IMG/VR virus record: IMGVR_UViG_3300040770_000140
Location: 1 to 35,992 of that record
Length of the DNA: 35,992 bases
Direction: 5' to 3' (one strand)
DNA from: a virus
The notes beneath the pieces were generated by a model. That model worked only from the letters and a program-made list of their open reading frames with translations, did no database searches and was not told where the DNA came from. Below, piece after piece: positions 2,883 through 30,310 of this stretch (position 1 is its first letter; the number at the start of each line of letters is the position of its first letter). The translations under genes and the position numbers were made by a program.

Positions 2883-3457
2883 TGGAAAAGAAACCAAAAC
2901 ACAAGCCGACGAACCCGACCAAGACAGCCGTTAAAAAGGCCGACCGGTTGGCAGTTCGTGACGCTTCGCTTATGCCTTTTGAAGTAGCAAAAGAACAGAC
3001 AGAAAACAAGCCAGCGACGCACAAAAAAACCGCATTATCAAAACAACAGGATTTTATTAAATTGATATTCGAAAAAAACCCTGTCGGACGTCCTAGGCTT
3101 TACGCTTCAGTTGAAGGCCTACAAGCCGAAATAACAGCCTATTTCGTTTACTGTTATGAATTCGGTATAAAATTGACTATCAGCGGTTTAATTTTATATT
3201 GTGGTTTTTCAGACAGAAAAAGTTTTTACGAATATGAACAAAAGGCCGAATTTACTCACATAATCAAGAAGGCGCGCGCTATTATAACGCTACATTATGA
3301 AGGCCTATTAACCGAAGCGTTCCCACAAGGCGCCGTTTTCGCGCTCAAAAATCTAGGCTGGAACGCTGAAGAAAAGACCGAAACGACAGTTAAAACAGCA
3401 ACTTCTTTTTATATAGGCGGCGACGCCGAAATTATTGACTATGACGAACCCGAATAA
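2882..3457 (+). CDS. terS: Terminase small subunit
   Basis: GRPRLY..EITAYFVYC..LTISGLILYCGFSDRKSFYEY..GAVFALKNLGW resembles the P27/Terminase_4-type small subunit. The start overlaps the upstream stop (TAATG), and it lies immediately before TerL. Confidence 0.7.
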   Translation: MEKKPKHKPTNPTKTAVKKADRLAVRDASLMPFEVAKEQTENKPATHKKTALSKQQDFIKLIFEKNPVGRPRLYASVEGLQAEITAYFVYCYEFGIKLTISGLILYCGFSDRKSFYEYEQKAEFTHIIKKARAIITLHYEGLLTEAFPQGAVFALKNLGWNAEEKTETTVKTATSFYIGGDAEIIDYDEPE

Positions 3458-4991
3458 CAACCGCGTCGGCCTGACGTTTAACCCTAAATTATTCAACCCT
3501 AATTTTCATCATATAGAACGCGAATTTTGTAACCAGCAAAGGCGTTTTATATGGTGTTACGGCGGTTCTAGTTCGGCCAAGACTTACAGCGTAAGCCAAG
3601 CCGTTTTAATTATTGGTTCGTTGATTGAGGGAAGCGATTCGCTTGTTTTTCGTAAGGTAAGCGCGACGCTTGAAAGTACCATTTTCAAAGACTTTACCGG
3701 TATTATTAAAGCGCTGAAGCTGGACGCCTTTTTTAAAGTGAACTATAGAAAAATAACTTGTATTAACGGCGCCGTTATTGACTTCAAAGGTTTAGACGAC
3801 AATCAGAAAATTAAAGGAATTTCAGGCTATAAGCGCGTTATTTTAGACGAAATTTCTGAAATGGAGTTCGCCGATTTTAAACAGATTCGTAAGCGTTTGA
3901 GGGGTCGCGTCGGCCAGCAAATTGTTTGTATGTTTAACCCTATAGACGAAGAACATTGGATTAAAAAAGAAGTCTTTGACAAGCAAGAAAAGCGCGTTTT
4001 GCCGAACAGTTTAGTCGACCCGAACGGCGTCTTGAAACTGAACGTTTCGCCGATATTTACCGAAGTAGCGGAAAAGTGGGAAGGCGCGCCGCTGGCGATT
4101 AAGGGCGTCGAAATGCCTTCTAATATTGTCGTAATGAAGTCTAATTATAAAAATAACTTTTGGGTCGTTGGGTCGCCTTGCAAGACCTTTGGCTTCGAAG
4201 ACGTTCAAACGCTTTTAGATTTCGATTATGACCGCGTGAACGATTGGGATTTCTACAATATTTACGGCCTTGGTAATTGGGGTAAATTGAACAAAGGCGG
4301 CGAAATGTATAAGAATTTTGACGTCAAAAGGCACGTTAAGCCGCTACTTTATGACCCTGAACGCTCGCTACATTTGACCTTTGACGAAAATGTTAATCCA
4401 TTTATGACGCTAGACATATTTCAAGCTGAAGGCCTGAAAGCGTGGCAAATAGACGAAATATGTCTTGAAGACCCACGTAACACGCTAAAACACACTATTG
4501 ACGAATTCGCCAGCCGATACGACCCGAACGGAATGACGCTGTTTATTTACGGCGACGCGACCAGCCGAAAGCAAGACGTCAAGCTAGAAAAAGGCGTTAA
4601 CTTCTTCGTATTAATCGAAAACGCGCTTCAGGAAAAAGGCTATAATATAGTTCGCCGCGTGCCTTCTAAGAACCCGAACGTCGAACTTCGATGTAATTGG
4701 TTTAATGCGGTTCTTAATGGCTTAGACGGTATCGAAGTCAGTTTTGGCGACCATTGCACCAAGACAATAGGCGACTATAAATATTTAAAACAGGCTTCAG
4801 ACGGTGGCAAGCACAAAGAAAAAGAAAAGAACAGCGTGACGGGCGTAGTCTTCGAAAAATACGGCCACAATACCGACGCGAACGACTACTTCTTTACGTA
4901 TTACTTCGCTTCAAGCTTCGACGCCTTCGGTTCGTCTCGAACGGTCGCAAAGGCTATTATTCGAAATAGGTCGCCGAAGGGCGTTTATTAA
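3435..4991 (+). CDS. terL: Terminase large subunit (PBSX/Terminase_3-like)
   Basis: 518 aa. Walker-A-like CYGGSSSAKTYS and Walker-B-like KRVILDEISE. Position follows TerS. Confidence 0.85.
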   Translation: MTMTNPNNNRVGLTFNPKLFNPNFHHIEREFCNQQRRFIWCYGGSSSAKTYSVSQAVLIIGSLIEGSDSLVFRKVSATLESTIFKDFTGIIKALKLDAFFKVNYRKITCINGAVIDFKGLDDNQKIKGISGYKRVILDEISEMEFADFKQIRKRLRGRVGQQIVCMFNPIDEEHWIKKEVFDKQEKRVLPNSLVDPNGVLKLNVSPIFTEVAEKWEGAPLAIKGVEMPSNIVVMKSNYKNNFWVVGSPCKTFGFEDVQTLLDFDYDRVNDWDFYNIYGLGNWGKLNKGGEMYKNFDVKRHVKPLLYDPERSLHLTFDENVNPFMTLDIFQAEGLKAWQIDEICLEDPRNTLKHTIDEFASRYDPNGMTLFIYGDATSRKQDVKLEKGVNFFVLIENALQEKGYNIVRRVPSKNPNVELRCNWFNAVLNGLDGIEVSFGDHCTKTIGDYKYLKQASDGGKHKEKEKNSVTGVVFEKYGHNTDANDYFFTYYFASSFDAFGSSRTVAKAIIRNRSPKGVY

Positions 4992-5417: not shown

Positions 5418-5447
5418 ACGCCTTGCGATATGTAAGGCGTTTTTTTT
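5418..5447 (+). terminator. Intrinsic terminator
   Basis: Stem acgcctt (5418-5424) / aaggcgt (5434-5440), 9-nt loop, then T7. Confidence 0.75.
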
Positions 5448-5450
5448 GTT

Positions 5451-5458
5451 TATATTTG
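5451..5458 (+). promoter_or_regulatory. Bacteroidota-type -7 promoter box TATATTTG
   Basis: Perfect TAnnTTTG directly after the terminator, 18 nt upstream of ATG 5476. Confidence 0.4.
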
Positions 5459-5475
5459 GCAAAACATTAATTATT

Positions 5476-6171
5476 ATGGCTTTTCTTATAAAACGCGATT
5501 ATTTTCTTCTAATAGACGAAGAAGACCTTGACGTAGTTAGTTTTTCAAGTAACGAAGGCGTGACCGCCGACGCTATCATTGAAGAAACTGAAGCAAACGT
5601 AGTTCAAGAAATTTCTTCTTACTTGTCAGGTCGTTATGACGTGGCGAAAATATTTTTTCCTGTTAACGAATATTTGAACGGCGAGACCTTCAAGGCTGGC
5701 GACTTCATTTATTTGAACGCGCCGAAGCTTCAGGCCGACGACTTCGCTGTTAACGAATTAGCGACGCACGCCGACGGTCTTGTTTATCGTTGTACTACAG
5801 CCGGAACACTACAGACAGCCGAATTTTTAGCTATTGGAACCGCTGGCCGCTATTATACCGCTTTAGTCGACACGAACGCCGAAGACTTGTTTTCTGACGT
5901 CGCCAAGTTCGAAACCGGCGAAAAGCGTAACGCGTTAATGAAGCGCCACGTCGTAAATATTGCATTGTACGAACTTCATTCGCGTATCAATCCGCGTAAT
6001 ATACCGGAATTCAGGATACAAAGGCGCGACGATTCCGTTTCGTGGCTTAAATTGGTACAAAATCCACGTAATAACGTAGACGCTGACTTTTTGCCGAAAC
6101 GCGACCTTGGACTTCAAAAAGGTAACGACATATCTTGGAACTCAAAAAAGAAACTTAGCCACGACTATTAA
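5476..6171 (+). CDS. Hypothetical head-associated protein. The N-terminus weakly resembles DUF1320 / Mu gp36-like connector proteins
   Basis: The ORF track starts at TTG 5446, inside the terminator/promoter. ATG 5476 (MAFLIKRDYF..) is the plausible start. The resemblance is from memory only. Confidence 0.55.
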   Translation: MAFLIKRDYFLLIDEEDLDVVSFSSNEGVTADAIIEETEANVVQEISSYLSGRYDVAKIFFPVNEYLNGETFKAGDFIYLNAPKLQADDFAVNELATHADGLVYRCTTAGTLQTAEFLAIGTAGRYYTALVDTNAEDLFSDVAKFETGEKRNALMKRHVVNIALYELHSRINPRNIPEFRIQRRDDSVSWLKLVQNPRNNVDADFLPKRDLGLQKGNDISWNSKKKLSHDY

Positions 6172-6182
6172 ACCATATAAAA

Positions 6183-7481
6183 ATGAGAATATTAAATTAC
6201 GAAATAAACGCTTCGGGCGTCGTTAACGTCACAAAAGAAGCCGCAAGGCAAGAAGCGGCGTTAAACAATAAACAAGCGCGCAAAGCGGCCACGATTCGTG
6301 AAAAAATCTATAGAACAGCTTTAATGCGTTCGCGCGCTGGGGTTCTTGAATGGCAAGCGGCGACCCAACAGGCCGAAAGTATCATTTTACCGAATAATAC
6401 GGAACTTATTCGCGTTTATAAAAGCATTGACGTAGACCTTCATTTATTTGCTTTAATGCAAACGATTCGAATTAAAGTAATAGCGAATAACTTCTTTATC
6501 TATAACGCTGACGGCGAAGTTAACCAAGAAGCGACCGATTTATTCAAAAAGAAATGGTTCCGTAAGACTGTAAAGCATATAGTCGATTCGGAATTCTACG
6601 GCTTTAGTTTAATACAGCTTTTAGACATAAAAGACGGTATTTTTTCGGACGCCGAACTTGTGCCGCGCGAATACGTTATTCAACAGCGCCAAGGCGTTAA
6701 AACCTCGTTAACCAATACAAGCGAATTGATACCATTTAACGCGCCGGAGTACTTAAATTGGGTCATTCCTGTAGGAGAACCCGACAATTTGGGTCTATTG
6801 CATAAAGCCGCGCCGCTTGTGATTAAGAAAAAAGAAGTCATAAGCGCGTGGTCTGAAAGCGCCGAAATTTTCGGTATGCCTTTGCGCGTTGGTCGCACGA
6901 ACATAAACGACCCTGTTAAGCGTGCAAATATGGAAGATATGCTTGACAATATCGGCGCGGCTGGCTGGGCGGTAATTCACGAGGACGACGTAGTTGAATT
7001 CGTCGAAACGTCGAAGACCGATTTTTATAAGATATACCAAGAATTCATTCAAACGACGAATTCAGAACTTTCGAAGGGGTTTTTGCTTCAGACCGGAACA
7101 ACAGACGAAAAAGCCTTCAGCGGTTCGGCTGGCGTTCACGAAAATTTACTTAAGTCATTAATCGAAGCTTATATAGTTTTAGTCGAAGAAACGGTTAACG
7201 AAGCGATTATTCCAGCCTGTCAGCGTTTAAGCCTTATTCCTGTCGGTTGTTACTTCCAAAGCGATAACGAACAGAAACTTAGCCTTGAAGAAATGGTTAA
7301 AATCGTAAGCGAATTGCTTAAATATAAGGACGTACCGAACGACTTTATTCTTGAAACTTTCGGCGTGCCGACTGAAGACAAAATTATTGAAGAAATAGCG
7401 AACCCGAACGCGGCGCCTTCTTCAGTAATGCAAAGCGTCAAAAATATGTATTCTAACGTATTAAAAACTTGTGAACATTGA
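6183..7481 (+). CDS. Portal protein (Mu gp29 / DUF935-like)
   Basis: 432 aa lying between terminase and MuF. FYGFSLIQL and EIFGMPLRVGRT resemble DUF935 portals. Confidence 0.65.
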   Translation: MRILNYEINASGVVNVTKEAARQEAALNNKQARKAATIREKIYRTALMRSRAGVLEWQAATQQAESIILPNNTELIRVYKSIDVDLHLFALMQTIRIKVIANNFFIYNADGEVNQEATDLFKKKWFRKTVKHIVDSEFYGFSLIQLLDIKDGIFSDAELVPREYVIQQRQGVKTSLTNTSELIPFNAPEYLNWVIPVGEPDNLGLLHKAAPLVIKKKEVISAWSESAEIFGMPLRVGRTNINDPVKRANMEDMLDNIGAAGWAVIHEDDVVEFVETSKTDFYKIYQEFIQTTNSELSKGFLLQTGTTDEKAFSGSAGVHENLLKSLIEAYIVLVEETVNEAIIPACQRLSLIPVGCYFQSDNEQKLSLEEMVKIVSELLKYKDVPNDFILETFGVPTEDKIIEEIANPNAAPSSVMQSVKNMYSNVLKTCEH

Positions 7482-9160
7482 ACGAATTAAGCTATACAGA
7501 CAAAGAAATTGAAGACATAATAAACCGCGTTTACGGGGGTTCGGTTTCGCGCGACGTCTTGCCTGTCGAACTATATAACGACGTAAAGAACCGCTTGAAT
7601 AAGGCGGTTTTTGAAGGCTTCGGCGGTTCGTATGCTCAATTTGACACGTCAACGACTGAAGGCCTGATTATGGCCGGTTTTGAAAAGAATATAGCCGTAT
7701 TTTCAGGCGCGAAGACATTCCAGCAAGTTAACGATATGAGTAATATTCTTTATTCAGGGGTTAACGGTTCAAAGATTCCATTCAATGAATTTAAAGCACA
7801 CGCGAACGAAATATTCGACACTTATAACAATAATTGGCTAAAAACCGAATATAATACAGCTTTAAGCCAAGCGTCGGCCGGTCGTCAATGGTCAGACATA
7901 GAAGCGCAAAAGGACATTTTGCCATTAATAAAATATTTAACTGTAGGCGACGGCCGCGTTCGCGACAAACATATTCCATTGGACGGCGTCGTTTATCCTG
8001 TAGAACACCCGTTTTGGAACGAAAATTTTCCGGCTAACGATTGGAATTGCCGTTGCATTACTGAACAGCTTATGGAAGGCGAAGAACCGACGACAGACGA
8101 AAATAAAACTTTTCCTGAAAACCCTGAATTATTCAGAATGAACGCCGGAAAAGACAAGATTATTTTTCGCGAAGACGTACACCCTTATTTAAAAGTTTCG
8201 GAGCGTTACCAAGTAGCGCTTCAAAATAATTTCGACTTGCCTTTTGTTCCTGAAGTAAAAGTTAAGGTTCCACGGGCGCCACGGGTGCCAAAACTGCCAA
8301 AGGCGCCGAAGGTTCCGGCGGTTCCCGAAGCGGTTCCGGTCGTAGAACAGACAGCACAACAGGCCGCCGAAAGAATTAAAAACTTGCCGCTTGTCAAAGA
8401 AGCCGCGGCTTTAGACGTAGAACTTGCCGCTGGAAAAGAAGCCAGCGCGGCCGAATTACGCGCTATAAATTTAATTAACTACAGAACAGACCCGACGGAA
8501 TATAGTAGGCGCGTAAACGCTTGGAACGCTGACCTTCGCGCGCGTAAAAAATTAGTTTCAAGAAAAAAGTTGCTATTGAAAAAGGCCGAAACTGACATTA
8601 TTGACATTCTAAAAGTCGAAGACCATTTTGAAGAACTTAATTTCGTATCTTTAGCTAACTCGCTGGAAAAAAAGCCTAAGCTTATACAAACGCTCGACAA
8701 GTTTAAAACTTTCTTTTCGAAGAAATGGCAACCGGAGAACTTAAGCGTTAACATTTACGTTAAGCCGCGCGTTCGTGCCAATTTTATAGGCGGCCGCTAT
8801 AACCGCGTGACGCTTTCGCCTACGGACGGAACCGAAACAATACTTCACGAGTTAGGCCACTTTTTAGAACACGACAGGCCGGAACTTCATAGTCAAATAA
8901 TGGAGTTCTACAACAAGCGAACCGTCGGCGACAAGCTGGAACGCCTTCGCGACGTGACAGGAAATAAAGGCTACGAACTAAGAGAAATAACCAAAAAAGA
9001 CAATTTCGTTGACCCTTATATTGGTCGTTTTTATAACGAAGCCGGAGCGTCTGAAGTCTTGACTATGTGGTTTACTGAAGTATTCAACAATCCTACGCGA
9101 TTAATGAACAAGGACTTCGAATATTTTGAATTTATTTATAAACTTTTAAGACAGAAATAA
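7478..9160 (+). CDS. MuF-like minor head protein fused to a Pro/Lys-rich linker and a C-terminal HExxH (putative Zn-metallopeptidase) domain
   Basis: Phage_Mu_F core DGRVRDKHIPLDG..HPFWNENFPANDWNCRC. Linker VPRAPRVPKLPKAPKVPAVPEAVP. HELGH encoded at 8846-8860. TTG start overlaps the portal stop (TTGA). Confidence 0.8.
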   Translation: MNELSYTDKEIEDIINRVYGGSVSRDVLPVELYNDVKNRLNKAVFEGFGGSYAQFDTSTTEGLIMAGFEKNIAVFSGAKTFQQVNDMSNILYSGVNGSKIPFNEFKAHANEIFDTYNNNWLKTEYNTALSQASAGRQWSDIEAQKDILPLIKYLTVGDGRVRDKHIPLDGVVYPVEHPFWNENFPANDWNCRCITEQLMEGEEPTTDENKTFPENPELFRMNAGKDKIIFREDVHPYLKVSERYQVALQNNFDLPFVPEVKVKVPRAPRVPKLPKAPKVPAVPEAVPVVEQTAQQAAERIKNLPLVKEAAALDVELAAGKEASAAELRAINLINYRTDPTEYSRRVNAWNADLRARKKLVSRKKLLLKKAETDIIDILKVEDHFEELNFVSLANSLEKKPKLIQTLDKFKTFFSKKWQPENLSVNIYVKPRVRANFIGGRYNRVTLSPTDGTETILHELGHFLEHDRPELHSQIMEFYNKRTVGDKLERLRDVTGNKGYELREITKKDNFVDPYIGRFYNEAGASEVLTMWFTEVFNNPTRLMNKDFEYFEFIYKLLRQK

Positions 9161-9387
9161 TGTTAACAGCAGTTAGAAAAGAAGACAGTCTTCGCGTTGT
9201 TATTGACGGCGCGACCATAATATTACCCGAACCGCTTTCATTCCTGAAGGCGGCCTTCGAAGACTTCGCGCCGCATACCAGCGAAGGCGAACCTGAAGCT
9301 TTATTTTATTACCAATTCGTCGAACCTTTAGGCTTTGTTTTAACGCAATACGCGCCGCCTGTAGACGACCCGAAAACAGTTTATTAA
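9160..9387 (+). CDS. Small acidic hypothetical protein, translationally coupled to the MuF fusion
   Basis: 75-aa ORF with a TAATG overlap on the upstream stop. Confidence 0.55.
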   Translation: MLTAVRKEDSLRVVIDGATIILPEPLSFLKAAFEDFAPHTSEGEPEALFYYQFVEPLGFVLTQYAPPVDDPKTVY

Positions 9388-9789
9388 ATGGCCTTTAACT
9401 TCCAAGCTAAAATTCAAGAATTACAGCGGACAAGACAGTATTTACCGATTTTAGTCGGGAACCAAGCCAAGAACCACTTTTTAAGGGGTTTCAGGAACGG
9501 CGGCTTTACGGACGCGACGCTTGAACCGTGGGCGGCAAGGAAAAAAGCTGACAAGAACCCAAAGCCGCGCGCTATTTTAGTCAAAACCGGCCATTTGCGC
9601 GGTTCAATTCGCGTGAAGGTGGCTACATTCCAAAAAATAGAAATAGGCGCTTACGGGATTCCTTACGCGGTTTATCATAACCAAGGCGTCGGCAAAATGC
9701 CAAAAAGAAAGTTTATAGGCGAAAGCAAGACCTTAAACCGGAATATAAGAGCGTTAATAAATAGAGAATTTATAAAAATATTAAGATGA
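9388..9789 (+). CDS. Virion morphogenesis protein (Mu gpG-like)
   Basis: ILVKTGHLRGSI..IGAYGIPYAVYHNQG..MPKRKFIG fits my memory of the PF05069 pattern. Position follows MuF, as in Mu. Confidence 0.55.
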   Translation: MAFNFQAKIQELQRTRQYLPILVGNQAKNHFLRGFRNGGFTDATLEPWAARKKADKNPKPRAILVKTGHLRGSIRVKVATFQKIEIGAYGIPYAVYHNQGVGKMPKRKFIGESKTLNRNIRALINREFIKILR

Positions 9790-10289
9790 ACCCAAAACTT
9801 CAATTATTCGACGCGCTGGCCTTAATGGTAGCCGAAAAATTACCGGAAATTAAAACCTTCAGGCTGTTCAATAATCAATTCGAAAAAGAAGGCGTCGAAA
9901 AGGCCTTTGCTTTTCCGGCTGTCTTCGTTGAATTCGTTTCGACAGAATACACCAGCCAAAGCGAAAGCCGACAGCTTGGCGAAACTATGATTCGTTTTTA
10001 CTTGGGTTTTTCTTCATTAAAGACAGAAGACAGACGCGTTTTCGAGGTCGCTAATAACTTGAATTTTTGGCTTCAGAACTTCAGCGTCGAAAACTTAACG
10101 ACGCCGCTAGACCGCAAGCGCGAAGTTCAGGACGTGAACCACGACAGCGTAATAGTTTGGCAAATGGAATATAGTACTTTGATTGTCGACAATACGGCGA
10201 ACAGAAGAAACAAACAAACGCTTCTAACGTTCGTACCGGAACTAGAAATTAAGACCGAACCCGAAGGTTATTTTTTAAAGCCTTCATAG
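9786..10289 (+). CDS. Hypothetical structural (head completion/neck) protein
   Basis: 167-aa ORF with an ATGA overlap on the upstream gene. Call is positional only. Confidence 0.45.
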   Translation: MNPKLQLFDALALMVAEKLPEIKTFRLFNNQFEKEGVEKAFAFPAVFVEFVSTEYTSQSESRQLGETMIRFYLGFSSLKTEDRRVFEVANNLNFWLQNFSVENLTTPLDRKREVQDVNHDSVIVWQMEYSTLIVDNTANRRNKQTLLTFVPELEIKTEPEGYFLKPS

Positions 10290-10385: not shown

Positions 10386-10895
10386 TTATTTAACTACTTT
10401 CAAAGATTTTTCTTTCAATAATTTTTCGTTCGTTAAAGCTTCTAAATTTACGGCGTCGGCTTCTTTTGCTTCGGCGGCTTTTTGGTCAAAATTACGTTCG
10501 CCGTATTTCTTTAAATAGTCATTATGTGACTTAATTTCGCCGGCTGTCTTGGTTTCTAGCGTAAACCCGTTAGGTTTCCATTTTACTTTTAAAATGACCC
10601 AACCGTTAACGCTATAAACTTGGCTTTTAAAACGGGCGTCGCGCTTTGATTCCGTCGCGAATGATTGCATTCTTACGCGGCCGCTTAAAATGTCTTCAGG
10701 ATTGAAGCCGTTTCGCTTCAGTTCGCATTTTAAAGCGTGGTTAATGACCTTTAGGCCGTTTTGAACGAACGAAATAGCTTGCTGTTCTAGTGAAATGAGT
10801 TCGGCGTAATTCTTTTCGGCTTTGCGAAAATTTGAGACTTGAAACGCTGGCGCTATTCCGAAGCGCGCTAATAGTGAATTGATTGAATTTTTCAT
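10386..10895 (-). CDS. Hypothetical protein encoded on the reverse strand inside the head module
   Basis: The ORF track starts at TTG 10925. ATG 10895 (MKNSINSLLARF..) overlaps the stop of the upstream small ORF (ATGA). No motif recognised. Confidence 0.6.
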   Translation of the reverse strand: MKNSINSLLARFGIAPAFQVSNFRKAEKNYAELISLEQQAISFVQNGLKVINHALKCELKRNGFNPEDILSGRVRMQSFATESKRDARFKSQVYSVNGWVILKVKWKPNGFTLETKTAGEIKSHNDYLKKYGERNFDQKAAEAKEADAVNLEALTNEKLLKEKSLKVVK

Positions 10896-11062
10896 TCTTT
10901 TTTTTGTTTTGCGAAGTCTTTCCAAATTGTTTCTTCAGACAAAAAAAGGCGTTTGGCAAGGTCGCGAACGACGTCCGTAGTATTCAGGCTTTTATGTCGG
11001 CTGTTGACTTGCGTTTTAACGTACTTTTCGCGGTCTTCTAAGGTCTTTTGGTTCTTCTTCAT
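10892..11062 (-). CDS. Small putative helix-turn-helix protein (56 aa). It is not in the ORF track
   Basis: Hand translation: MKKNQKTLEDREKYVKTQVNSRHKSLNTTDVVRDLAKRLFLSEETIWKDFAKQKKE. The segment TTDVVRDLAKRLFLSEETIWKDF looks HTH-like. Confidence 0.45.
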   Translation of the reverse strand: MKKNQKTLEDREKYVKTQVNSRHKSLNTTDVVRDLAKRLFLSEETIWKDFAKQKKE

Positions 11063-11138: not shown

Positions 11139-12320
11139 ATGAAGCACAATTATATAAATAATTACGAACGCGGCTCGGATACGGCCGAAATGTTCATTTA
11201 CAAAGAAATTTCAGGCGAAGGCGTGAACGGCGCTCACTTCGCCGAAGAAATGCGTTGGCTTGCTTCTAACGGCGTTAAAACTATCGAAATTAAATTTAAT
11301 TCAGTAGGCGGCGACGTGATACACGCGCAAAGCATAGTTTCTGAAATAATCGACGCGCCGAAAAAAGGCGTTACGATTAAGGGGTTTTTAAATGGCCTTG
11401 GCGCTTCGTCAGCTGGCGTTATATGGCTTTCGATTGAAGAAAAGAACAGATACGCCAAAGATTACGCGCGTTTAATGATTCACGGCGTCAGCTTTAAAGA
11501 CGAACGAAACGCTTCAGAGAACGACCGCAATAGTTTAGCACAATTCAAAGCGACGTTAATACAGATTTTAACCAACAGAACCGGAAAAAAAGAACGCTTT
11601 TTTGAAGAACTTTTTTCAAACGATAAAGACAATTGGTTTACAACTGAAGAAATGGTAAAAGCTGGCCTTTTGGCGGCTGGTAACGTAGAAAATACAAGCG
11701 TTAAGATAAACGTAACACAAAGAGAACAAACGGCCGGCGTCGCGGTTGTTTATAATATGATAAATTCGACGGTAAACAGTATTAATAAAAACACGATTAA
11801 AATGAAAACAATTATCGCAAGGTTAAATTTGCAAGAAGGCGTTTCCGAAGAAGTGATTGACAAAGCCGTAGAAACTATCCAAAACAGTTTAGTGACAGCG
11901 TCGACGTTAGCCGGAAACCAAGCTTCGAAAATTGCTGAACTTGAAAACAAGATTTCAGAACAAAAAACGGCCTTAGACGAGGTAAACAAAACGGCGACTA
12001 TTGCGTTCGTCGAAAACTGTATTAAAGACGGTAAAATTGACCCTTCGAAAAAAGACGAAGTTATTGCTTCAGCTGAAAAAGACCTTCAAGGCTTCGTAAA
12101 TCTTATGTCAATGGTAAATGTTAAGTCGGTCGACATTCGTAACGCTTTCAAAGGCGACCAAGGCCAAGCGGCACCAGCTACAGAAACAAGAACTTTCAGA
12201 CAATTAGAACGCGAAGCGCCACAAGTGCTTAACGCTTTAAAATCGACTGACAAGCCGGCTTTCGTAGCGCTTTACAATGCAGAATACAAAACCAACAAAA
12301 CTGAAGCTGATTTTCAATAA
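11139..12320 (+). CDS. ClpP-like (S14/S49) prohead protease fused to a C-terminal coiled-coil scaffold domain
   Basis: FNSVGGDV..LNGLGASSAGVIWLS..RLMIHGVS give a Ser/His protease core. The C-terminal half is coiled-coil rich (ELENKISEQKTALDEVNK). Confidence 0.75.
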   Translation: MKHNYINNYERGSDTAEMFIYKEISGEGVNGAHFAEEMRWLASNGVKTIEIKFNSVGGDVIHAQSIVSEIIDAPKKGVTIKGFLNGLGASSAGVIWLSIEEKNRYAKDYARLMIHGVSFKDERNASENDRNSLAQFKATLIQILTNRTGKKERFFEELFSNDKDNWFTTEEMVKAGLLAAGNVENTSVKINVTQREQTAGVAVVYNMINSTVNSINKNTIKMKTIIARLNLQEGVSEEVIDKAVETIQNSLVTASTLAGNQASKIAELENKISEQKTALDEVNKTATIAFVENCIKDGKIDPSKKDEVIASAEKDLQGFVNLMSMVNVKSVDIRNAFKGDQGQAAPATETRTFRQLEREAPQVLNALKSTDKPAFVALYNAEYKTNKTEADFQ

Positions 12321-12354: not shown

Positions 12355-13434
12355 ATGAAAAATAGAATTTCCCTTTTACGCGTTTCAATTAACTTGCTTT
12401 TAGCTTGTATTATTGGAATGGTTTTTAGTTCCGCTTTTGTCGGTGCTGGCGTTTTCCTTTTAGGAACAGGCGTGCAAATATTATTCAAGAAGTCGTTCAC
12501 GGCTGGAAGTTTAGCCTTCGCGCTACAAACTGAAGTTTGGGTTGCTGACATTCAAGAAAAACTTTACTACGGTAACGAATTCTTGTTTTTGGCTCAAGAC
12601 CATTCACAATTCATTGAGAACAAAACGGTTCACGTTCCCCAAGCTGGAAATTCGCCGAATGTAGTTAAGAACAGAGCCGCGGTAAATACTGACCCTATAC
12701 AAAGAACAGATTCCGAAATTACTTACGATTTAGATAACTATACTACTGACCCGATTTTAGTTAAAAGTATTGAAGACTTACAAGTTTCTTACGCGAAACG
12801 TCAGTCTGTTTTGTCTTCTCACATTGCGACATTAAGCGACACTATCGCTACGTCTACGCTTCAGAAATGGGCGGTTACTGTTTCAGCTACGCACGTATTG
12901 AGAACAACCGGAGCGAACACCGGAACGTTACCAAACGCGACAGCTACAGGAACACGTTTTAAAACGACAAAAGAAGACATTGCGCGCGCTTCGGCTAGAA
13001 TGGATTTAGACAAAGTACCTTCACAAGAAAGATACTTGGTTATGCCGGCGGCTATGTTCTACGACTTATTTACTGATAGCGATTTAGTTCGCTCACGTGC
13101 TACGGTTTCCGCTGATATGTTAGCGAAGGGCGTTATTGCTGAACTATTCGGCTTTAATATCATTAAACGCGGCGAGGTTGTAAAATATACGTCAGCTGGT
13201 ACGAATACGCTTATAGCTTCAGGAACGGCCGACGCGGCTACTGATTGCGCCGGTGCTGTTGGGTTTAGCCGTTTTATGACGTCTCAAGCTTTGGGCGCTA
13301 TTAGAGTTTATGCGAACGAAGGCGACGCGCAAAAATACGGAGACGTTTTTAGCGCTGAAGTGAACCACGGAGCGCACTATTTAAGAACGAATAACGTAGG
13401 GCGCGTTTCTATTGCTCAAGGCGCCGGAATTTAA
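12355..13434 (+). CDS. Major capsid protein. Start is ambiguous: ATG 12355 or GTG 12472
   Basis: Position lies after protease/scaffold and before a strong terminator. LQTEVWVADIQEKLY..PQAG resembles the N-terminus of Bacteroidota phage capsid proteins (from memory). Confidence 0.6.
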   Translation: MKNRISLLRVSINLLLACIIGMVFSSAFVGAGVFLLGTGVQILFKKSFTAGSLAFALQTEVWVADIQEKLYYGNEFLFLAQDHSQFIENKTVHVPQAGNSPNVVKNRAAVNTDPIQRTDSEITYDLDNYTTDPILVKSIEDLQVSYAKRQSVLSSHIATLSDTIATSTLQKWAVTVSATHVLRTTGANTGTLPNATATGTRFKTTKEDIARASARMDLDKVPSQERYLVMPAAMFYDLFTDSDLVRSRATVSADMLAKGVIAELFGFNIIKRGEVVKYTSAGTNTLIASGTADAATDCAGAVGFSRFMTSQALGAIRVYANEGDAQKYGDVFSAEVNHGAHYLRTNNVGRVSIAQGAGI

Positions 13435-13514: not shown

Positions 13515-14690
13515 ATGAACGATGTAATTTTTAACCGTGGCGAAGGCGGTCTTGGTCGCGCTTTAGCTGGCGAAGACCACGTTAGCGGCCTTTTAGCCTA
13601 CTTATTAGCCGCTGACTTGCCAGCAAGTTTTTCTTCAGATTCTATAAAGGAAATTTATTCCATTGAAGAAGCCGAAGCGCTCGGAATAAACAACGAAACC
13701 GCGGCGCCTTCAGCTGTCAAAGCTTTGCATTACCAAATTAACGCTATTTTTGAAGCGAATAACCAAGCCGTTTTATACTTGGCTATCTATACAAGAACGG
13801 GAATAACAGCGCCGGACTATACGAAGGTTCTGAACGTTCAGCGCTTTGCTGAAGGTAAGATTCGCCAGCTTGGAGTTTTAGACGAAGAAGTTACTTTTGC
13901 CGGTTCTGTAGTGACTGTATTGCAAACGCAAGCCGACATTTTGGAAGCGGAACACAAGCCTTTGAGTATTGTTATAGCTGGTAAAATGTCAACTTTTGCA
14001 AATACTTCGACTTTGCCGGATTTACGCGCTTTAGACGCGAAAAACGTTTCTGTCGTTGTTGGTTCTGACGGTGCCGGTCTTGGTTCCAAAACTACAGCTT
14101 CAATTTTAGGCTTAACAATTGGGTTTTTATCGCTTGCAAAAGTGAACGAAAATGTCGGCTGGGTTGGGCGCTTTAATGTAGCGAAAAACGCTACGAACGA
14201 ATTCGACGTTCCGGCGCTTTCAACAGACGGAACCCTTTTAAAAACCTTGGCCGCTGGTGCTGTTCAGACTATAAGCGACAAAGGTTATATTTTTATCAAA
14301 AAGCACGTAGGAACAGCCGGAACGTATTTTAATGATACGCCAACAGCCACGGCCGTAACGTCGGACTACGCTTTTATTGAGAATAACAGAACGATAGACA
14401 AAGCTGTTCGAGTATGTAGAACGTTTCTTTTGCCAAGTATTAACGCGCCTTTGTACGTTGAGACAGACGGAAAACTTACCGAAGACACGATTGCAAGCTT
14501 CAGAAATGACGCGCGCCGCGGTCTTGAAACGATGCAAAAAGACGGCGAAATTTCAGCTTTTGAAGTGGTTATTAATCCAGCGCAAGACGTGCTAAGTTCG
14601 TCGAAAATCGTTCTTACATTAAAAATCATTCCTGTAGGAGTTGCAAGAAAAATCGAAGTAAATATTGGCTTTGCCGTTAAAATATCTTAA
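13515..14690 (+). CDS. Tail sheath protein (putative)
   Basis: 391 aa, first gene of the tail block. It is followed by tube, G/GT chaperone and tape measure. Baseplate spike and hub genes are present. Confidence 0.5.
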   Translation: MNDVIFNRGEGGLGRALAGEDHVSGLLAYLLAADLPASFSSDSIKEIYSIEEAEALGINNETAAPSAVKALHYQINAIFEANNQAVLYLAIYTRTGITAPDYTKVLNVQRFAEGKIRQLGVLDEEVTFAGSVVTVLQTQADILEAEHKPLSIVIAGKMSTFANTSTLPDLRALDAKNVSVVVGSDGAGLGSKTTASILGLTIGFLSLAKVNENVGWVGRFNVAKNATNEFDVPALSTDGTLLKTLAAGAVQTISDKGYIFIKKHVGTAGTYFNDTPTATAVTSDYAFIENNRTIDKAVRVCRTFLLPSINAPLYVETDGKLTEDTIASFRNDARRGLETMQKDGEISAFEVVINPAQDVLSSSKIVLTLKIIPVGVARKIEVNIGFAVKIS

Positions 14691-25925: not shown

Positions 25926-26225
25926 ATGAACGAATTTATTTCTAAAAATTGGGAAGTTTTAGCCGGTTTAATCGGAACAAGTAGCTTGTTTTTTAGTGGT
26001 CTAAAGTTCAAAAGACAGAACGAAAAAACGACAGAACTTGAAAACCTTAAAACGGTTCGCGGTATCGAAAAAAGCCTTTTAGAAGATATGCGCGTTCAAA
26101 TTGACGAACTCGTTAAATTAAACAATTATTTAAAAGGTATAGTCGAAATTCAGACCATACAAATAGCACAATACAGGACGCAATTCGGCGAACTAAATCT
26201 AAAAATAAAGGAAAATGAAAAATAA
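25926..26225 (+). CDS. Single-pass membrane protein with a coiled coil (holin or spanin-like candidate)
   Basis: TM segment WEVLAGLIGTSSLFFSGL followed by a heptad-rich region. It lies immediately upstream of the amidase and overlaps it. Confidence 0.45.
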   Translation: MNEFISKNWEVLAGLIGTSSLFFSGLKFKRQNEKTTELENLKTVRGIEKSLLEDMRVQIDELVKLNNYLKGIVEIQTIQIAQYRTQFGELNLKIKENEK

Positions 26226-26805
26226 AATTATTGTAGTAGACGCCGGCCACGGTGGCGTAATTAAAGGAATACCACAAACGGCCGGAAAACGTTCGCCGGA
26301 CTTCGGCAAAGGTATTTTATACGAAGGCGTAACGAACAGGCAAATAGCGCGAAAGTTTCTTTGTATGCTCAAAAACGCCGGTATTCCTTGCGTCGAATTG
26401 GTTCCTGAAGAAACTGACGTTTCGCTTGGCGAACGCGTCCGTAGGGTTAACAAAATAAAAGACGCTGTTCTTGTTAGCTTCCATTCGAACGCTGGGGTCG
26501 AAACGGCTTCAGGCTGGGAAATTTTCACTTCAGTAGGCAAGACAGCCGCCGACCCTATAGCCGAAGCTATACTTCAGGAAATGAAAAAAGAATTTCCAAA
26601 GGCGAAGTTCAGAACCGACAATTCAGACGGCGACGGCGACAAAGAAGAAAATTTTTACATACTTAAAAATTCAAATTGTCCGGCCGTTTTAATAGAGAAT
26701 TTTTTTATGACCAACAAAGAAGACTATTCGCTTTTATTGTCTGAAGCCGGCCAAAATAAGATTTCGAAGGCTGTTTTTGAAGCCGTTAAAAATCTTCGTA
26801 AATGA
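26215..26805 (+). CDS. N-acetylmuramoyl-L-alanine amidase (Amidase_3) endolysin
   Basis: IIVVDAGHGG, VSFHSNA and PAVLIENFFMTN are the canonical Amidase_3 motifs. Confidence 0.85.
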   Translation: MKNKIIVVDAGHGGVIKGIPQTAGKRSPDFGKGILYEGVTNRQIARKFLCMLKNAGIPCVELVPEETDVSLGERVRRVNKIKDAVLVSFHSNAGVETASGWEIFTSVGKTAADPIAEAILQEMKKEFPKAKFRTDNSDGDGDKEENFYILKNSNCPAVLIENFFMTNKEDYSLLLSEAGQNKISKAVFEAVKNLRK

Positions 26806-27681: not shown

Positions 27682-28935
27682 TTATTCAGAAACGTTTTCT
27701 TCAATTTCTATTTTAAGCGAACCGTCTTCGCGGTCGACCAATTCTACAAATAACTCTATACCTTCAGATTTAGACCAAGTTTTTACTTTTTCGAAGTTTT
27801 CTTTGTCAATAAGCGAAGCGTCAATTTTCAGAATTTTAACTTCATTCAGAAGCGAAGCGCCAATTTTCAAACCGGCGATTAATTGCGCGGCGGTATTTAT
27901 TTGGGTTCTGTCGAACGGCAACGCGTTAAAAAGAAAACATTCGTTTTCTATATCATAAGACAGGCCTTCAATATTGATTTTTTCGGAAATTATAACCGCT
28001 TTTCTGTCCTTGCTTTCGGTTATTCCGTCCGTCGCTTCTTGAATGGCTTCTTGTAGCTTTTCAATGGCTTCGTCGGCTTCTTTGTAGCCTTTGGCTTCGA
28101 ATATTGAAGCGTTTATTTTCTCGCTGTTCTTGAAGTCGTTTTCAAGGCCAGCCAGCACGTCAGACGGTACCGGTTTATTTCCGGCTTCGTCCAGCCAAGT
28201 ATAAGCGCCTTTTACTTCAGCTTCAATTTTATCGAATTCGGCCTTCAGTACTTTAATTCGCTGTTCGCGGTCAGCTATTCCGTCGGTCACTTTTTGCCAA
28301 TTTTCAGCTTTTACGCGTTCGACTTCTCTTAATTTGGTTATTTTTTCGGCCAATTCCACGACGTTGACAAGCGGCTTTTCGGCTTCTTCAGGCTGGAAAA
28401 AGCCGGCCTTGGCTTGAAGTTCGACAAGCTTCTTTTTATCAAATTTGCGGCTGTCGCTGTTTTCTTCAATTTGTTGGTCTAATTCGTAAACGTCGACGCC
28501 GGTAATTTTACAAAAATATTCGACTTGCTTCGCGTCTGACATTTTGAAGAAGTCGTTAACGTTAAAGTCTATAACGCCTATACGTTCGTTTAACCACGTT
28601 CGCGGCGCTTTTACGAACTTGTCTTTTTCGTCGACAGCGTTCAGGTTCTCAATTTCAAAAGAAACCGGAGTTTTACCGGTAGCCAATTTTGTACGAACAA
28701 TGAAACCGTCGGCAAGTTCTACTTCGATAAGGCCTTTTTTGGCGCCTGTCGTGACCGGTTTCGGCGGTATGTTCTTACCGGTAAGCGCAAGCCAAACAGC
28801 GTCTATAAACGAAGTTTTGCCGCTGGCGTTCTTGCCTGTAAGATAAACGTCGTTTCCTAAAACTTCGCCTTCGTAAGCCTTAAGGCCTTTAAAATTCTGA
28901 ATTTTGATTCTCTTAATTTGTGTTTCGTTTGACAT
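27682..28935 (-). CDS. SMC/Rad50/RecF-like ABC-type ATPase with a central coiled coil
   Basis: IKIQNFKGL..LTGKNASGKTSFIDAVWLALTG is an SMC_N-type Walker A. The central region is coiled coil. C-terminus: NTAAQLIAGLKIG..ILKIDAS. Start moved to ATG 28935 because ATG 28977 lies in the loop of the upstream terminator. Confidence 0.7.
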   Translation of the reverse strand: MSNETQIKRIKIQNFKGLKAYEGEVLGNDVYLTGKNASGKTSFIDAVWLALTGKNIPPKPVTTGAKKGLIEVELADGFIVRTKLATGKTPVSFEIENLNAVDEKDKFVKAPRTWLNERIGVIDFNVNDFFKMSDAKQVEYFCKITGVDVYELDQQIEENSDSRKFDKKKLVELQAKAGFFQPEEAEKPLVNVVELAEKITKLREVERVKAENWQKVTDGIADREQRIKVLKAEFDKIEAEVKGAYTWLDEAGNKPVPSDVLAGLENDFKNSEKINASIFEAKGYKEADEAIEKLQEAIQEATDGITESKDRKAVIISEKINIEGLSYDIENECFLFNALPFDRTQINTAAQLIAGLKIGASLLNEVKILKIDASLIDKENFEKVKTWSKSEGIELFVELVDREDGSLKIEIEENVSE

Positions 28936-28956
28936 TTTTTTTGATTTATTGAGGTT

Positions 28957-28990
28957 AAAGAAAAAAGGCGCGGCCATTGAACCGCGCCTT
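28957..28990 (-). terminator. Intrinsic terminator (minus strand) after the SSB-like gene
   Basis: Minus strand reads aaggcgcgg-ttcaatgg-ccgcgcctt followed by TTTTTTCTTT. Confidence 0.7.
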
Positions 28991-29009
28991 ATATTATTTT
29001 AATAATGGC

Positions 29010-29675
29010 CTAAAATGGAAGCGCTTTTTTGATTATGTCGCCGCCGCCGATAGGGTTAAGAATATAACCGGCCGGAATTTCGTCGCCTTGAACCCAATTT
29101 TCAGGGGTTACGACCTTCGCGTTCGTGGCCGCTGGCGTCGCGTTTGGGTTCTGACCGTCGGCCGCTGTCGCTTTGCCTATAAACGGATTACCGCCGGAAA
29201 CGAAAAGCTGTTTTAAATCAATGGGGTTGTCGGTATAAGCTTCAACGATAACGTCAGAAACGGCGCTTGGCGGTTCAGGACTTGTAAAATATTCGGTATC
29301 CATTCCCGAACCTTTTTTTGTAATTACTATGTCGTAATTTTTAGGGTGACCCCAAGCCGCCTTTTCAGATAATGCGATTAAATTCGCGATAATTCCGGCT
29401 TTGTCAAGTTCAAAAACTTCTATTTTTGCGGTCTTGTAATTCCAAACGATAAGACCCCAAGCGTGCTTAACGCTGTCGCTTTTTCCGTCGCCTTTTGGCG
29501 GCGTTGGTTGGTCTTTAAACCAAGCCGAACGCGTAGGCTTGCCGTCGCGCCATTCCAGCCACATAAGAACCGGAGAAGACAGGATTCGAAGCGTATTGTC
29601 GCCTGTTTCTAATTTTGTAAAACCGCCGCCGCTTGTTGGTTGCGCGTAACCTTCAGGAATAAATGAATTTGACAT
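29010..29675 (-). CDS. Putative ssDNA-binding protein (phage gp2.5/DUF669-like OB-fold; unverified)
   Basis: GFTKLETGDNTLRILSSPV..HAWGLIVWNY..IEVFEL is a pattern I associate with phage SSBs. It has a low-complexity C-terminal region ending ..KKALPF and lies next to the recombination ATPase. Confidence 0.45.
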   Translation of the reverse strand: MSNSFIPEGYAQPTSGGGFTKLETGDNTLRILSSPVLMWLEWRDGKPTRSAWFKDQPTPPKGDGKSDSVKHAWGLIVWNYKTAKIEVFELDKAGIIANLIALSEKAAWGHPKNYDIVITKKGSGMDTEYFTSPEPPSAVSDVIVEAYTDNPIDLKQLFVSGGNPFIGKATAADGQNPNATPAATNAKVVTPENWVQGDEIPAGYILNPIGGGDIIKKALPF

Positions 29676-29701
29676 AATTTTGATATTTAATTGTTAATTG
29701 A

Positions 29702-29962
29702 TTACTTTTTTGAGTTTTGAAGCGTTAAAACAAGTGCTTCCAGCTTTTCGGTAATGTCGGCGTCGGTCTGTCTTAATTGAAGAACGTTCGACATTAATGA
29801 CCGCTTTTTTACGGTATCTAATTCAGGGAATTGAAAGACTAAAAGCGTAGTTATGCCGCTTTTAGGTAACAAAAGCTTCGCATTTATGACGCGAATTTTT
29901 AAACTGTGGTCAGTCGGCTGAAGCTTCTTTTCTTCGGCCGTGGGTTTTCTTGGAATTTTCAT
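29702..29962 (-). CDS. Hypothetical protein
   Basis: 86-aa ORF in the leftward operon. Confidence 0.5.
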   Translation of the reverse strand: MKIPRKPTAEEKKLQPTDHSLKIRVINAKLLLPKSGITTLLVFQFPELDTVKKRSLMSNVLQLRQTDADITEKLEALVLTLQNSKK

Positions 29963-29974
29963 TTTTTTAGGATT

Positions 29975-30226
29975 TTATTTTAAACAGAAATTTACAGTAA
30001 GACCGCCGCGCAAACGAATAACCGTTTTTGTTAGGTCGGAATTTAAGGCGCGGTCAAAGTGACGAAGCGCCAAGTCAATAGGGTCTTTTGAGTTTTCCAA
30101 TAATATAGCGTATTTTCCGGCGCCTATTAAAGACGTTTTTTTGTCGCCGTCAAAACGGTAACGAATAACGAAGTTTTGATTAATTGACTTAATAAGGCTT
30201 TGTTCAATGTGGCTAATTACTGACAT
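29975..30226 (-). CDS. Hypothetical protein (first gene of the leftward operon)
   Basis: The ORF track starts at 30298, but a minus-strand -7 box (30257-30264) lies inside that extension. ATG 30226 (MSVISHIEQ..) is downstream of it. Confidence 0.5.
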   Translation of the reverse strand: MSVISHIEQSLIKSINQNFVIRYRFDGDKKTSLIGAGKYAILLENSKDPIDLALRHFDRALNSDLTKTVIRLRGGLTVNFCLK

Positions 30227-30256
30227 AATGGGTTTTTTTCTCGTTGTTGTTGGGTG

Positions 30257-30264
30257 CAAAGATA
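30257..30264 (-). promoter_or_regulatory. Bacteroidota-type -7 box TATCTTTG (minus strand), leftward promoter
   Basis: The plus strand reads caaagata. It ends 30 nt upstream of ATG 30226. Confidence 0.4.
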
Positions 30265-30310
30265 TAAATGTTTTTGACATTATAAAATTTTTTTGCAATT
30301 AATTTTTACA

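Follow-up and report, generated by a model that had tools for sequence, protein, structure and literature searches.

Directly downstream of its portal gene, the viral record IMGVR_UViG_3300040770_000140 (35,992 nucleotides, all of which were analysed and are referred to below as the window) carries a gene for a MuF-type head protein. This protein continues into a C-terminal domain with an HExxH motif, and its gene overlaps a small acidic open reading frame (ORF). The question raised by this locus is what a peptidase-like domain does at the end of a head protein, and what role the small protein encoded beside it plays. The reading that we favour, with a probability of about 0.55, is that the MuF protein carries a zincin-type effector that would be delivered by the virion, and that the small protein is its cognate partner, which would silence the peptidase in the producing cell. 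An initial annotation of the window had raised the idea of a virion-delivered metallopeptidase with a cognate partner, and comparative genomics supports it: the cassette is absent from one relative and swapped in another, and the two genes are also linked in distant phages.

Organisation of the MuF locus

The window represents the ~36 kb genome of a myovirus with a Mu-like head. The closest sequenced phages are Flavobacterium phages vB_FspM_pippi8-1 and lotta8-1 (Winoviridae, genus Pippivirus), which share ~69% nucleotide identity with it. The features of the locus are as follows.

6183..7481, plus strand: Mu-type portal gene (Pfam Portal_Mu, E 3.2e-62), directly upstream of the MuF gene
7478..9160, plus strand: MuF-zincin fusion gene, 560 amino acids (aa), orthologue of pippi8-1 gp28; its TTG start overlaps the stop of the portal gene
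7478..8239, plus strand: MuF core, aa 1-254, putative conserved delivery or packaging module, from the Phage_Mu_F match and comparison with phage FPSV-S1
8240..8662, plus strand: Pro/Lys linker (~aa 258-285) and basic helical region (to ~aa 395), read from the sequence
~8303 (~aa 276), plus strand: presumed cassette boundary, in the linker, placed from the break between pippi8-1 and lotta8-1 at gp28 codon ~276
8663..9157, plus strand: C-terminal zincin-like metallopeptidase domain, aa 396-560, from homologues, invariant residues, the AlphaFold2 model and Foldseek
8846..8860, plus strand: HELGH, aa 457-461 (H457, E458 and H461), predicted zinc ligands and catalytic base, invariant in homologues
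9053..9055, plus strand: codon for the invariant E526, which opens the second core helix (SEVLTMW, consensus TEIxSMG) and is the predicted third zinc ligand
9160..9387, plus strand: translationally coupled 75-aa acidic partner ORF, with its ATG within a TAATG overlap
9370..9384, plus strand: C-terminal tail motif P-K-T-V-Y (PxxΦY-COOH), which ends the 75-aa ORF
9388..9789, plus strand: gpG/Neck1-type virion morphogenesis gene (Phage_tail_S, phrog_26), 52% identical to the FPSV-S1 orthologue; conserved synteny restarts here

Assignment of the N-terminal part to the MuF family is supported by a match of Pfam Phage_Mu_F (PF04233) to aa 110-194 (E 4.5e-13; 50.4 bits, cut-off 29.6). The TIGR01641 model scores slightly below its cut-off of 39.65 (38.5 bits, E 1.2e-09). 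The MuF signature reported in the initial annotation (DGRVRDKH and NDWNCRC, both within the 560-aa protein) was recovered in place, as were the Pro/Lys linker and the basic helical stretch. The position directly downstream of the portal gene is the one by which the MuF/SPP1 gp7 family is recognised, and aa 4-254 are 42% identical to the complete 253-aa short MuF protein of FPSV-S1. A weak match to phrog_595 ('head maturation protease') covers aa 143-358 and lies outside the HExxH domain. By analogy with SPP1 gp7 and 80alpha gp44, the MuF-peptidase would be packaged and ejected.

The 75-aa ORF is present as originally described, including the TAATG overlap, which would give coupled, roughly equimolar synthesis of the two proteins. 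Its product has an isoelectric point of 4.3, with 12 acidic and 5 basic residues.

Exchange of the cassette among Flavobacterium phages

Phage FPSV-S1, a member of the same family, has a genome syntenic with the window. Its 253-aa MuF protein ends where the linker of the window protein starts, and it has neither the peptidase domain nor the small ORF. The slot ahead of the gpG-like gene is filled instead by a Dcm methylase. Because FPSV-S1 has a short MuF gene and a methylase in this place, the MuF-gpG junction looks like a variable accessory locus in Winoviridae. In FPSV-S1, the short MuF gene and the methylase gene that follows it lie at L083:8680-10403. The methylase is a C-5 cytosine DNA methylase (PF00145, E 1.4e-50), and its presence would agree with a variable accessory site given over to counter-defence.

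The two phages of the genus Pippivirus provide a sharper comparison. Flanking DNA of pippi8-1 and lotta8-1 is 99.2-99.4% identical on both sides of the cassette, and there is zero similarity over the intervening 997 and 902 nucleotides, respectively. This stretch starts within the linker, at gp28 codon ~276, and identity restarts exactly where the small ORF ends, after its last base. At the protein level, the two gp28 products are 95% identical over aa 1-287 and unrelated beyond. The lotta8-1 cassette (L084:2801-3702, the C-terminal part of gp28 and gp29) encodes a different HExxH domain (HEFGHV...EFIAEAF) with weak Pfam matches to ATLF, the anthrax-lethal-factor family, and to Peptidase_M90. 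It also carries an unrelated small ORF, of 66 aa and with a CxxC motif. Viral contigs were scanned for relatives of this cassette, and lotta8-1 was the only match.

One phage family thus displays three states of the slot, namely no cargo with a Dcm methylase, zincin A with an acidic partner, and zincin B with a Cys-containing partner. The HExxH domain and the small ORF move between phages together, as a single unit, and members of the family can do without the domain. The locus has the features by which MuF polymorphic toxins are recognised: a C-terminal extension (aa 255-560), a swapped C-terminus and a co-varying small downstream ORF (<150 aa). It had been considered that the downstream ORF might be a conserved head-completion protein unrelated to the fusion; this is contradicted by its absence together with the domain in FPSV-S1 and its replacement together with the domain in lotta8-1. 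From this loss and replacement in relatives, the 75-aa ORF is established as part of the cassette in this phage lineage, irrespective of the wider family to which it may belong.

Conservation and predicted fold of the HExxH domain

A word-indexed homology search with the C-terminal domain gave one match only, and hence an exhaustive HMMER search was performed with aa 401-560 as the query against cluster representatives at 50% identity. This search gave 3558 clusters at E <= 1e-3 and 1056 at E <= 1e-10. All of the 151 best homologues retrieved have HExxH, and alignments of 98-100 homologues show no variation at H457, E458 or H461; the motif is therefore not due to chance, and its conservation bears out what had been expected of the HELGH at 8846-8860. 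The other invariant residues of the domain are R433, R481, E503, D508, Y514, G516, E526 and D546, and E464 is conserved at 99%. Of 170 copies of the domain, 150 end at most 15 residues from the protein C-terminus.

A Pfam MuF-type domain is present in 32 of 98 full-length homologues, and others carry portal, ADP-ribosyltransferase (ART), Acb1 or 2'-5' RNA ligase domains. The HExxH domain itself is not covered by any Pfam family, and no peptidase family was found at E <= 0.001 in these 98 proteins. None of the curated families Peptidase_M78/IrrE, MPTase-PolyVal and ATLF matches the window protein above its gathering score; Peptidase_M78 reaches 13.7 bits, below its cut-off of 22. The PHROGs that contain the domain (33618, 8561, 19443 and 20397) are annotated as 'unknown function' or 'minor head protein'.

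Of the 151 best homologues, 18 contain the peptidase domain two or three times in one polypeptide, which may be up to 1838 aa long. The multi-copy proteins (P0002, P0004, P0005, P0007, P0018, P0077 and P0128 among them) match the multi-MPTase polyvalent proteins of Iyer et al.

An AlphaFold2 model of the domain, built from a 39-sequence alignment, has a predicted local distance difference test (pLDDT) score of 91.8. The order of its elements, an N-terminal helix, three strands, the HExxH helix, an insert and a helix from E526, is that of zincins. HExxH lies in helix 57-71 of the model and helix 132-142 begins directly after the invariant E526, the predicted third zinc ligand; E464 and E503 are conserved as well. 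The top ranks of the Foldseek search of PDB are occupied mostly by zincins (anthrax lethal factor, jannalysin/selecase, IrrE/PprI, ArdC, BepA, LTA4H and SprT/Spartan), none of them at E < 0.1. The metallopeptidase fold that had been proposed for this region is suggested by the topology of the model and by the zincin-dominated list. In BFVD, the significant matches are uncharacterised phage proteins and 'head morphogenesis' proteins, with polyvalent-protein, IrrE, lethal-factor and SprT entries at lower ranks. Sequence searches of PDB with the single domain and with a profile gave marginal matches only, the profile aligning with FtsH around HExxH at E ~1.

Since no curated Pfam peptidase family scores above its gathering threshold and the only PHROGs are of unknown function, the C-terminal domain was taken to be a zincin family of its own, as yet uncurated and characteristic of the MuF and polyvalent proteins of phages. 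The domain is predicted to be catalytically active as a peptidase.

A family of small partner proteins

Orthologues of the 75-aa ORF are pippi8-1 gp29, L002, P0153 and P0154, with 37-89% amino-acid identity. Sixteen columns are invariant across the five aligned sequences, from relatives whose DNA is only ~69% identical. The conserved end of the protein has the form P-x-x-[VI]-Y-stop, as in PKTVY of the window, PKEIY of pippi8-1 and PNAIY of L002. In an AlphaFold model of the 75-aa protein alone, this tail is unstructured.

The linkage between domain and small ORF in distant phages was surveyed at 76 IMG/VR loci found by the domain and in the annotated Streptococcus phage 315.3 and Lactococcus phage 62503. 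Small, tightly coupled ORFs, usually acidic, account for 57 of the 80 unique downstream ORFs (median 81 aa), with gaps of mostly -4, -1 or +1, and both annotated phages show the same pattern of domain gene and coupled small ORF. A [VI]Y terminus is present in 38 of the 57 (67%), compared with 0.5% of the remaining ORFs at these loci (13 of 2574). A profile search started from the small proteins retrieved 90 proteins, none with a Pfam domain and all either unnamed or annotated 'hypothetical', and the terminal Tyr is invariant in an alignment of 83 small-protein sequences. The small proteins have no family in Pfam, PHROGs or NCBIfam.

When the association was examined in the reverse direction, five of six small-protein homologues were encoded downstream of a portal gene and directly after a domain-ending gene. 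The remaining one (P0221, 101 aa; L087:4001-4306 of Planktothrix agardhii 1032, JAKGOY010000002.1) is a chromosomal orphan, with no peptidase domain nearby. It adjoins large DUF499 and DUF1156/methylase genes, and could be an orphan 'immunity' gene in a host of PaV-LD, a phage that carries the peptidase.

The small ORFs also accompany the domain where no MuF part is recognisable, further tying the downstream ORF to the domain. Tandem arrays encode ~370-390-aa proteins that end in the peptidase domain and lack a Pfam MuF domain, paired with small ORFs of 86-99 aa that end in VY, IY, IL, VL or KL. At L037:106-5234, four such modules stand in a row, each with its own small ORF. Two domain genes are followed by one small ORF at L021:1223-3787 and in PaV-LD ORF080R-082R (L088:2221-4743), and another array lies on a single 100-kb contig (L027/L048). 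Natural fusions of a small protein with a peptidase were searched for and none was found. PaV-LD ORF081R, a member of the peptidase family, carries the GenBank label 'virion structural protein', the basis of which is unconfirmed. On Atribacteria-associated and related contigs (L085:4309-7203 and L091:3308-6231), the pair of MuF-peptidase gene and small ORF is followed by a gene for a ~1000-aa DNA ligase-domain protein and then by a methyltransferase-prohead protease fusion; these large proteins look like polyvalent proteins within the head module.

The 75-aa ORF of the window shares with this family its position, coupling, size, charge, pattern of β-strands, helix, helix and tail, and C-terminal motif, and likely belongs to it. 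Because sequence homology is weak, membership is assigned mainly from position, size, charge and C-terminal motif.

Genome setting and lifestyle

The remaining recognised genes of the head and tail region are listed below.

3435-4991: terminase, head module
5446-6171: gp36-like adaptor, head module
9786-10289: tail-terminator-like gene, downstream of the gpG/Neck1-like gene
11139-12320: ClpP-type prohead protease, a separate gene of the head module
12355-13434: major capsid protein
13515-14690: sheath

Two opposite-strand ORFs without a family match (10386-10925, minus strand, 179 aa, and 10892-11062, minus strand, 56 aa) lie inside the head module, after the tail-terminator-like gene and ahead of the gene for the prohead protease. 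Both pippi8-1 and lotta8-1 have opposite-strand genes (gp32 and gp33) at the matching position. A further minus-strand block (27682-30298) includes a gene for a 431-aa SMC/AAA_23-type ATPase and several ORFs without a family match; its neighbours are the lysis region (Amidase_3, 26215-26805) on one side and the helicase/exonuclease replication genes on the other.

Pfam matching detected no integrase or recombinase among the scanned ORFs of the window, which included every ORF of at least 180 aa. Phages pippi8-1 and lotta8-1 were isolated as virulent phages (PMC7077304), and the window phage also looks virulent. A scan of the contigs of representative genomes with narrow, window-type search patterns returned two loci only, both non-Bacteroidota, and no Bacteroidota prophage copy.

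Proposed mechanism and alternative explanations

In the mechanism that we propose, the conserved 254 N-terminal residues would form the portal-associated, capsid-packaged module, and everything from the Pro/Lys linker on would be the cargo cassette, made up of a helical spacer and a zincin-type (HExxH...E) metallopeptidase domain, with the 75-aa protein as its cognate partner. Late in infection, both proteins would be made at a ratio of ~1:1 through the TAATG coupling. The small protein would bind the peptidase domain and silence it in the producing cell, probably by laying its flexible tail with the conserved Φ-Tyr-COOH into the active-site cleft. A few copies of the MuF-peptidase would then be packaged with the DNA, and ejection through portal and tail would strip off, or leave behind, the non-covalently bound partner. 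Once in the new host, the peptidase would be active and might cleave host proteins, in takeover or anti-defence, and/or free itself from the MuF module.

The partner is probably an inhibitor of the peptidase, since IapK, encoded downstream of the MuF toxin Apk2, occludes the active site of Apk2 and offers an analogy. Binding of the tail to the active-site cleft is suggested by the invariant C-terminal aromatic residue, which lies on a tail that is unstructured in the lone model. An early host-directed or anti-defence role, or self-release, is favoured over an interbacterial toxin because no integrase or recombinase was found among the scanned ORFs and the relatives were isolated as virulent phages. 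A broader extension is doubtful but worth stating: small acidic proteins of this type may be a very widespread, unrecognised family of trans-acting zincin inhibitors that use a free C-terminal Φ-Tyr carboxylate to plug the active site of a cognate metallopeptidase, whether borne on MuF or on a separate virion protein. The enzyme may be an ejection-activated protease that loses its inhibitor on passage through portal and tail, so as to be active in the next host only, and that serves virulent phages as a host-takeover or anti-defence effector and not as a lysogen toxin. If this were true, tandem enzyme-inhibitor arrays and orphan inhibitors in host chromosomes, as in Planktothrix agardhii near defence-like genes, would be signs of an arms race.

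Several results weigh against a delivered zincin effector with a dedicated partner. None of the Foldseek matches in PDB is significant, the best having E 0.11 and the best template modelling (TM) scores being 0.3-0.5, and the label 'structural protein' on pippi8-1 gp28 was given by sequence similarity only. About one quarter of the domain-ending genes surveyed are without an obvious coupled small ORF, and a search for covariation between the terminal residue of the partner (Y or L) and columns of the peptidase brought out nothing informative in its conserved core. The AlphaFold model of the 75-aa protein alone is poor (pLDDT 59). A hidden Markov model of the partner family, built without Flavobacterium-type sequences, misses the window ORF, and the hhalign comparison of the two is weak (probability 12%, E 0.0025), albeit collinear and end-to-end.

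The peptidase might instead cut its own chain, perhaps within the Pro/Lys linker and at a stage that precedes packaging or follows ejection, which would set free the MuF core or the C-terminal part. The small protein would then be a timing factor or folding chaperone, with no host target. Such self-processing is plausible and compatible with the effector explanation, though unlikely to be the answer by itself. Autoproteolysis has been proposed as the main role of the zincins of polyvalent proteins, citing P1 DdrB (Iyer et al., PMC5512222), and the nearly constant location of the domain at the extreme C-terminus, after a long flexible linker, agrees with it. However, near-identical phages carry different cassettes with a different zincin, a pattern more like that of effectors under diversifying pressure; the MuF core of FPSV-S1 needs no such processing, and domain-ending proteins stand alone in tandem arrays, each with its own partner. 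It is also conceivable, but rather unlikely, that the small protein is a substrate, a co-packaged cargo or a targeting chaperone that is recognised through its free C-terminal Φ-Tyr, in which case the domain may be a carboxypeptidase or a binding module. An invariant last residue is what recognition of a free C-terminus would predict, an expectation that inhibitors meet equally well, and the invariant R433, R481 and Y514 could bind a carboxylate. On the other hand, the sole MuF cargo and partner pair studied experimentally is a toxin/immunity pair, and the orphan gene in a bacterial chromosome is easier to reconcile with an immunity-like role than with a cargo.

That the locus encodes a classical MuF polymorphic toxin, used by a temperate phage in interbacterial competition or in the lysis-lysogeny decision and with a small ORF that protects lysogens, would agree with the architecture and downstream ORF described by Jamet et al. 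and with the inclusion of the homologous fusion of temperate phage 315.3 in their toxin list. A benefit to lysogens is nevertheless highly improbable because the phage looks virulent, as judged from the scanned ORFs of the window and the isolation of its two relatives; moreover, a late gene of the head module would give a lysogen no protection. Least credible is the alternative role in capsid maturation allowed for in the initial annotation, namely a protease that matures the capsid or removes the scaffold, accompanied by a head-completion protein. The gene does sit in the head module, and the weak phrog_595 match carries a fitting label, though it falls outside the HExxH domain. But the phage has a dedicated ClpP-type prohead protease, and the domain and small ORF are absent from FPSV-S1 and both replaced in lotta8-1; with a separate protease and a dispensable cassette, such a role is very unlikely.

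Relation to known systems

Fusions of MuF with toxin domains were noted by Zhang et al. (2012). In the survey of Jamet et al. (2017), 13% of MuF proteins have toxin domains, 20% of those domains are metallopeptidases, and 89% of MuF toxins have an ORF of <150 aa next downstream (PMC5576092). The toxins were linked near-exclusively to temperate phages, mainly of Firmicutes, and were found in none of 22 Bacteroidetes MuF proteins. The suggestion that the system would be unusual for a Bacteroidota phage thus holds for its setting and not for its architecture, which is that of a described class. Streptococcus phage 315.3, whose MuF protein was found here to carry the same domain family as the window protein, was listed in that survey as 'Cter-Tox', without the name of a toxin domain in the supplementary tables (PMC5576092). 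The example studied experimentally is the MuF toxin Apk2, of (p)ppApp-synthetase type, with IapK/Aph1; IapK, encoded downstream of Apk2, neutralises it by occlusion of the active site (PMC12226406). The MuF protein gp44 of 80alpha is an ejection protein (PMC12323379), and zincin domains are the commonest domain of phage polyvalent proteins, in which MuF is another hub (Iyer et al. 2017, PMC5512222).

The locus belongs to the known class of MuF polymorphic toxins (Jamet 2017; Iyer 2017). Like these, it has a MuF gene after the portal gene, a variable enzymatic C-terminus and a small downstream ORF, with the latter two exchanged together. Unlike the described set, the window phage and its relatives appear to be virulent and infect Flavobacteriia, and the partner family has an invariant C-terminal Tyr, which was not found in the literature searched.

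The zincins of polyvalent proteins (PMC5512222) likewise have an N-terminal helix, a three-stranded sheet, the HExxH helix, a variable insert and a second helix that bears a Glu residue. They resemble the window domain also in being often fused to MuF, portal, ART and further effector domains and in having lethal-factor-like structural neighbours. The window protein differs in that it has two modules only and is not a giant, and the domain is missed by Pfam MPTase-PolyVal and other peptidase models; furthermore, PMC5512222 is silent on immunity proteins or a dedicated small partner.

Minigluzincins (jannalysin/selecase; PDB 4jix, rank 2 in Foldseek) share the minimal zincin scaffold and a similar size with the window domain, though the match is weak (E 0.14, TM 0.30-0.41). 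In their latent state, a C-terminal segment fills the active-site cleft. This is the mechanism proposed here in trans, whereas in minigluzincins the blocking segment comes from the enzyme itself or from its mate in a homodimer, with no phage context. SPP1 gp7 and 80alpha gp44 have a homologous N-terminal domain and the same gene position, but no C-terminal enzymatic cargo and no cognate small ORF, and FPSV-S1 represents this short state.

No MuF-metalloprotease with a partner was found to be described in the literature searched, although the absence of a match is not proof. Relative to that literature, the new elements are the setting in a virulent Bacteroidota phage, the three states of the cassette slot among Winoviridae, the large family of partners with their invariant C-terminal Tyr, and the tandem enzyme/partner arrays.

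MuF cargo is thought to be injected with the phage DNA, and only the (p)ppApp-synthetase type has been studied experimentally. The metallopeptidase type makes up about one fifth of the described MuF toxins. The window locus and its relatives amount to a natural experiment, with three states of one slot in virulent, culturable Flavobacterium phages, and the partner family with its C-terminal Tyr leads to a testable hypothesis on how a protease may be kept silent until delivery. If the protease targets defence or housekeeping proteins of the host, it would add a proteolytic class to the virion-delivered anti-host effectors and would extend the logic of polymorphic toxins beyond temperate phages.

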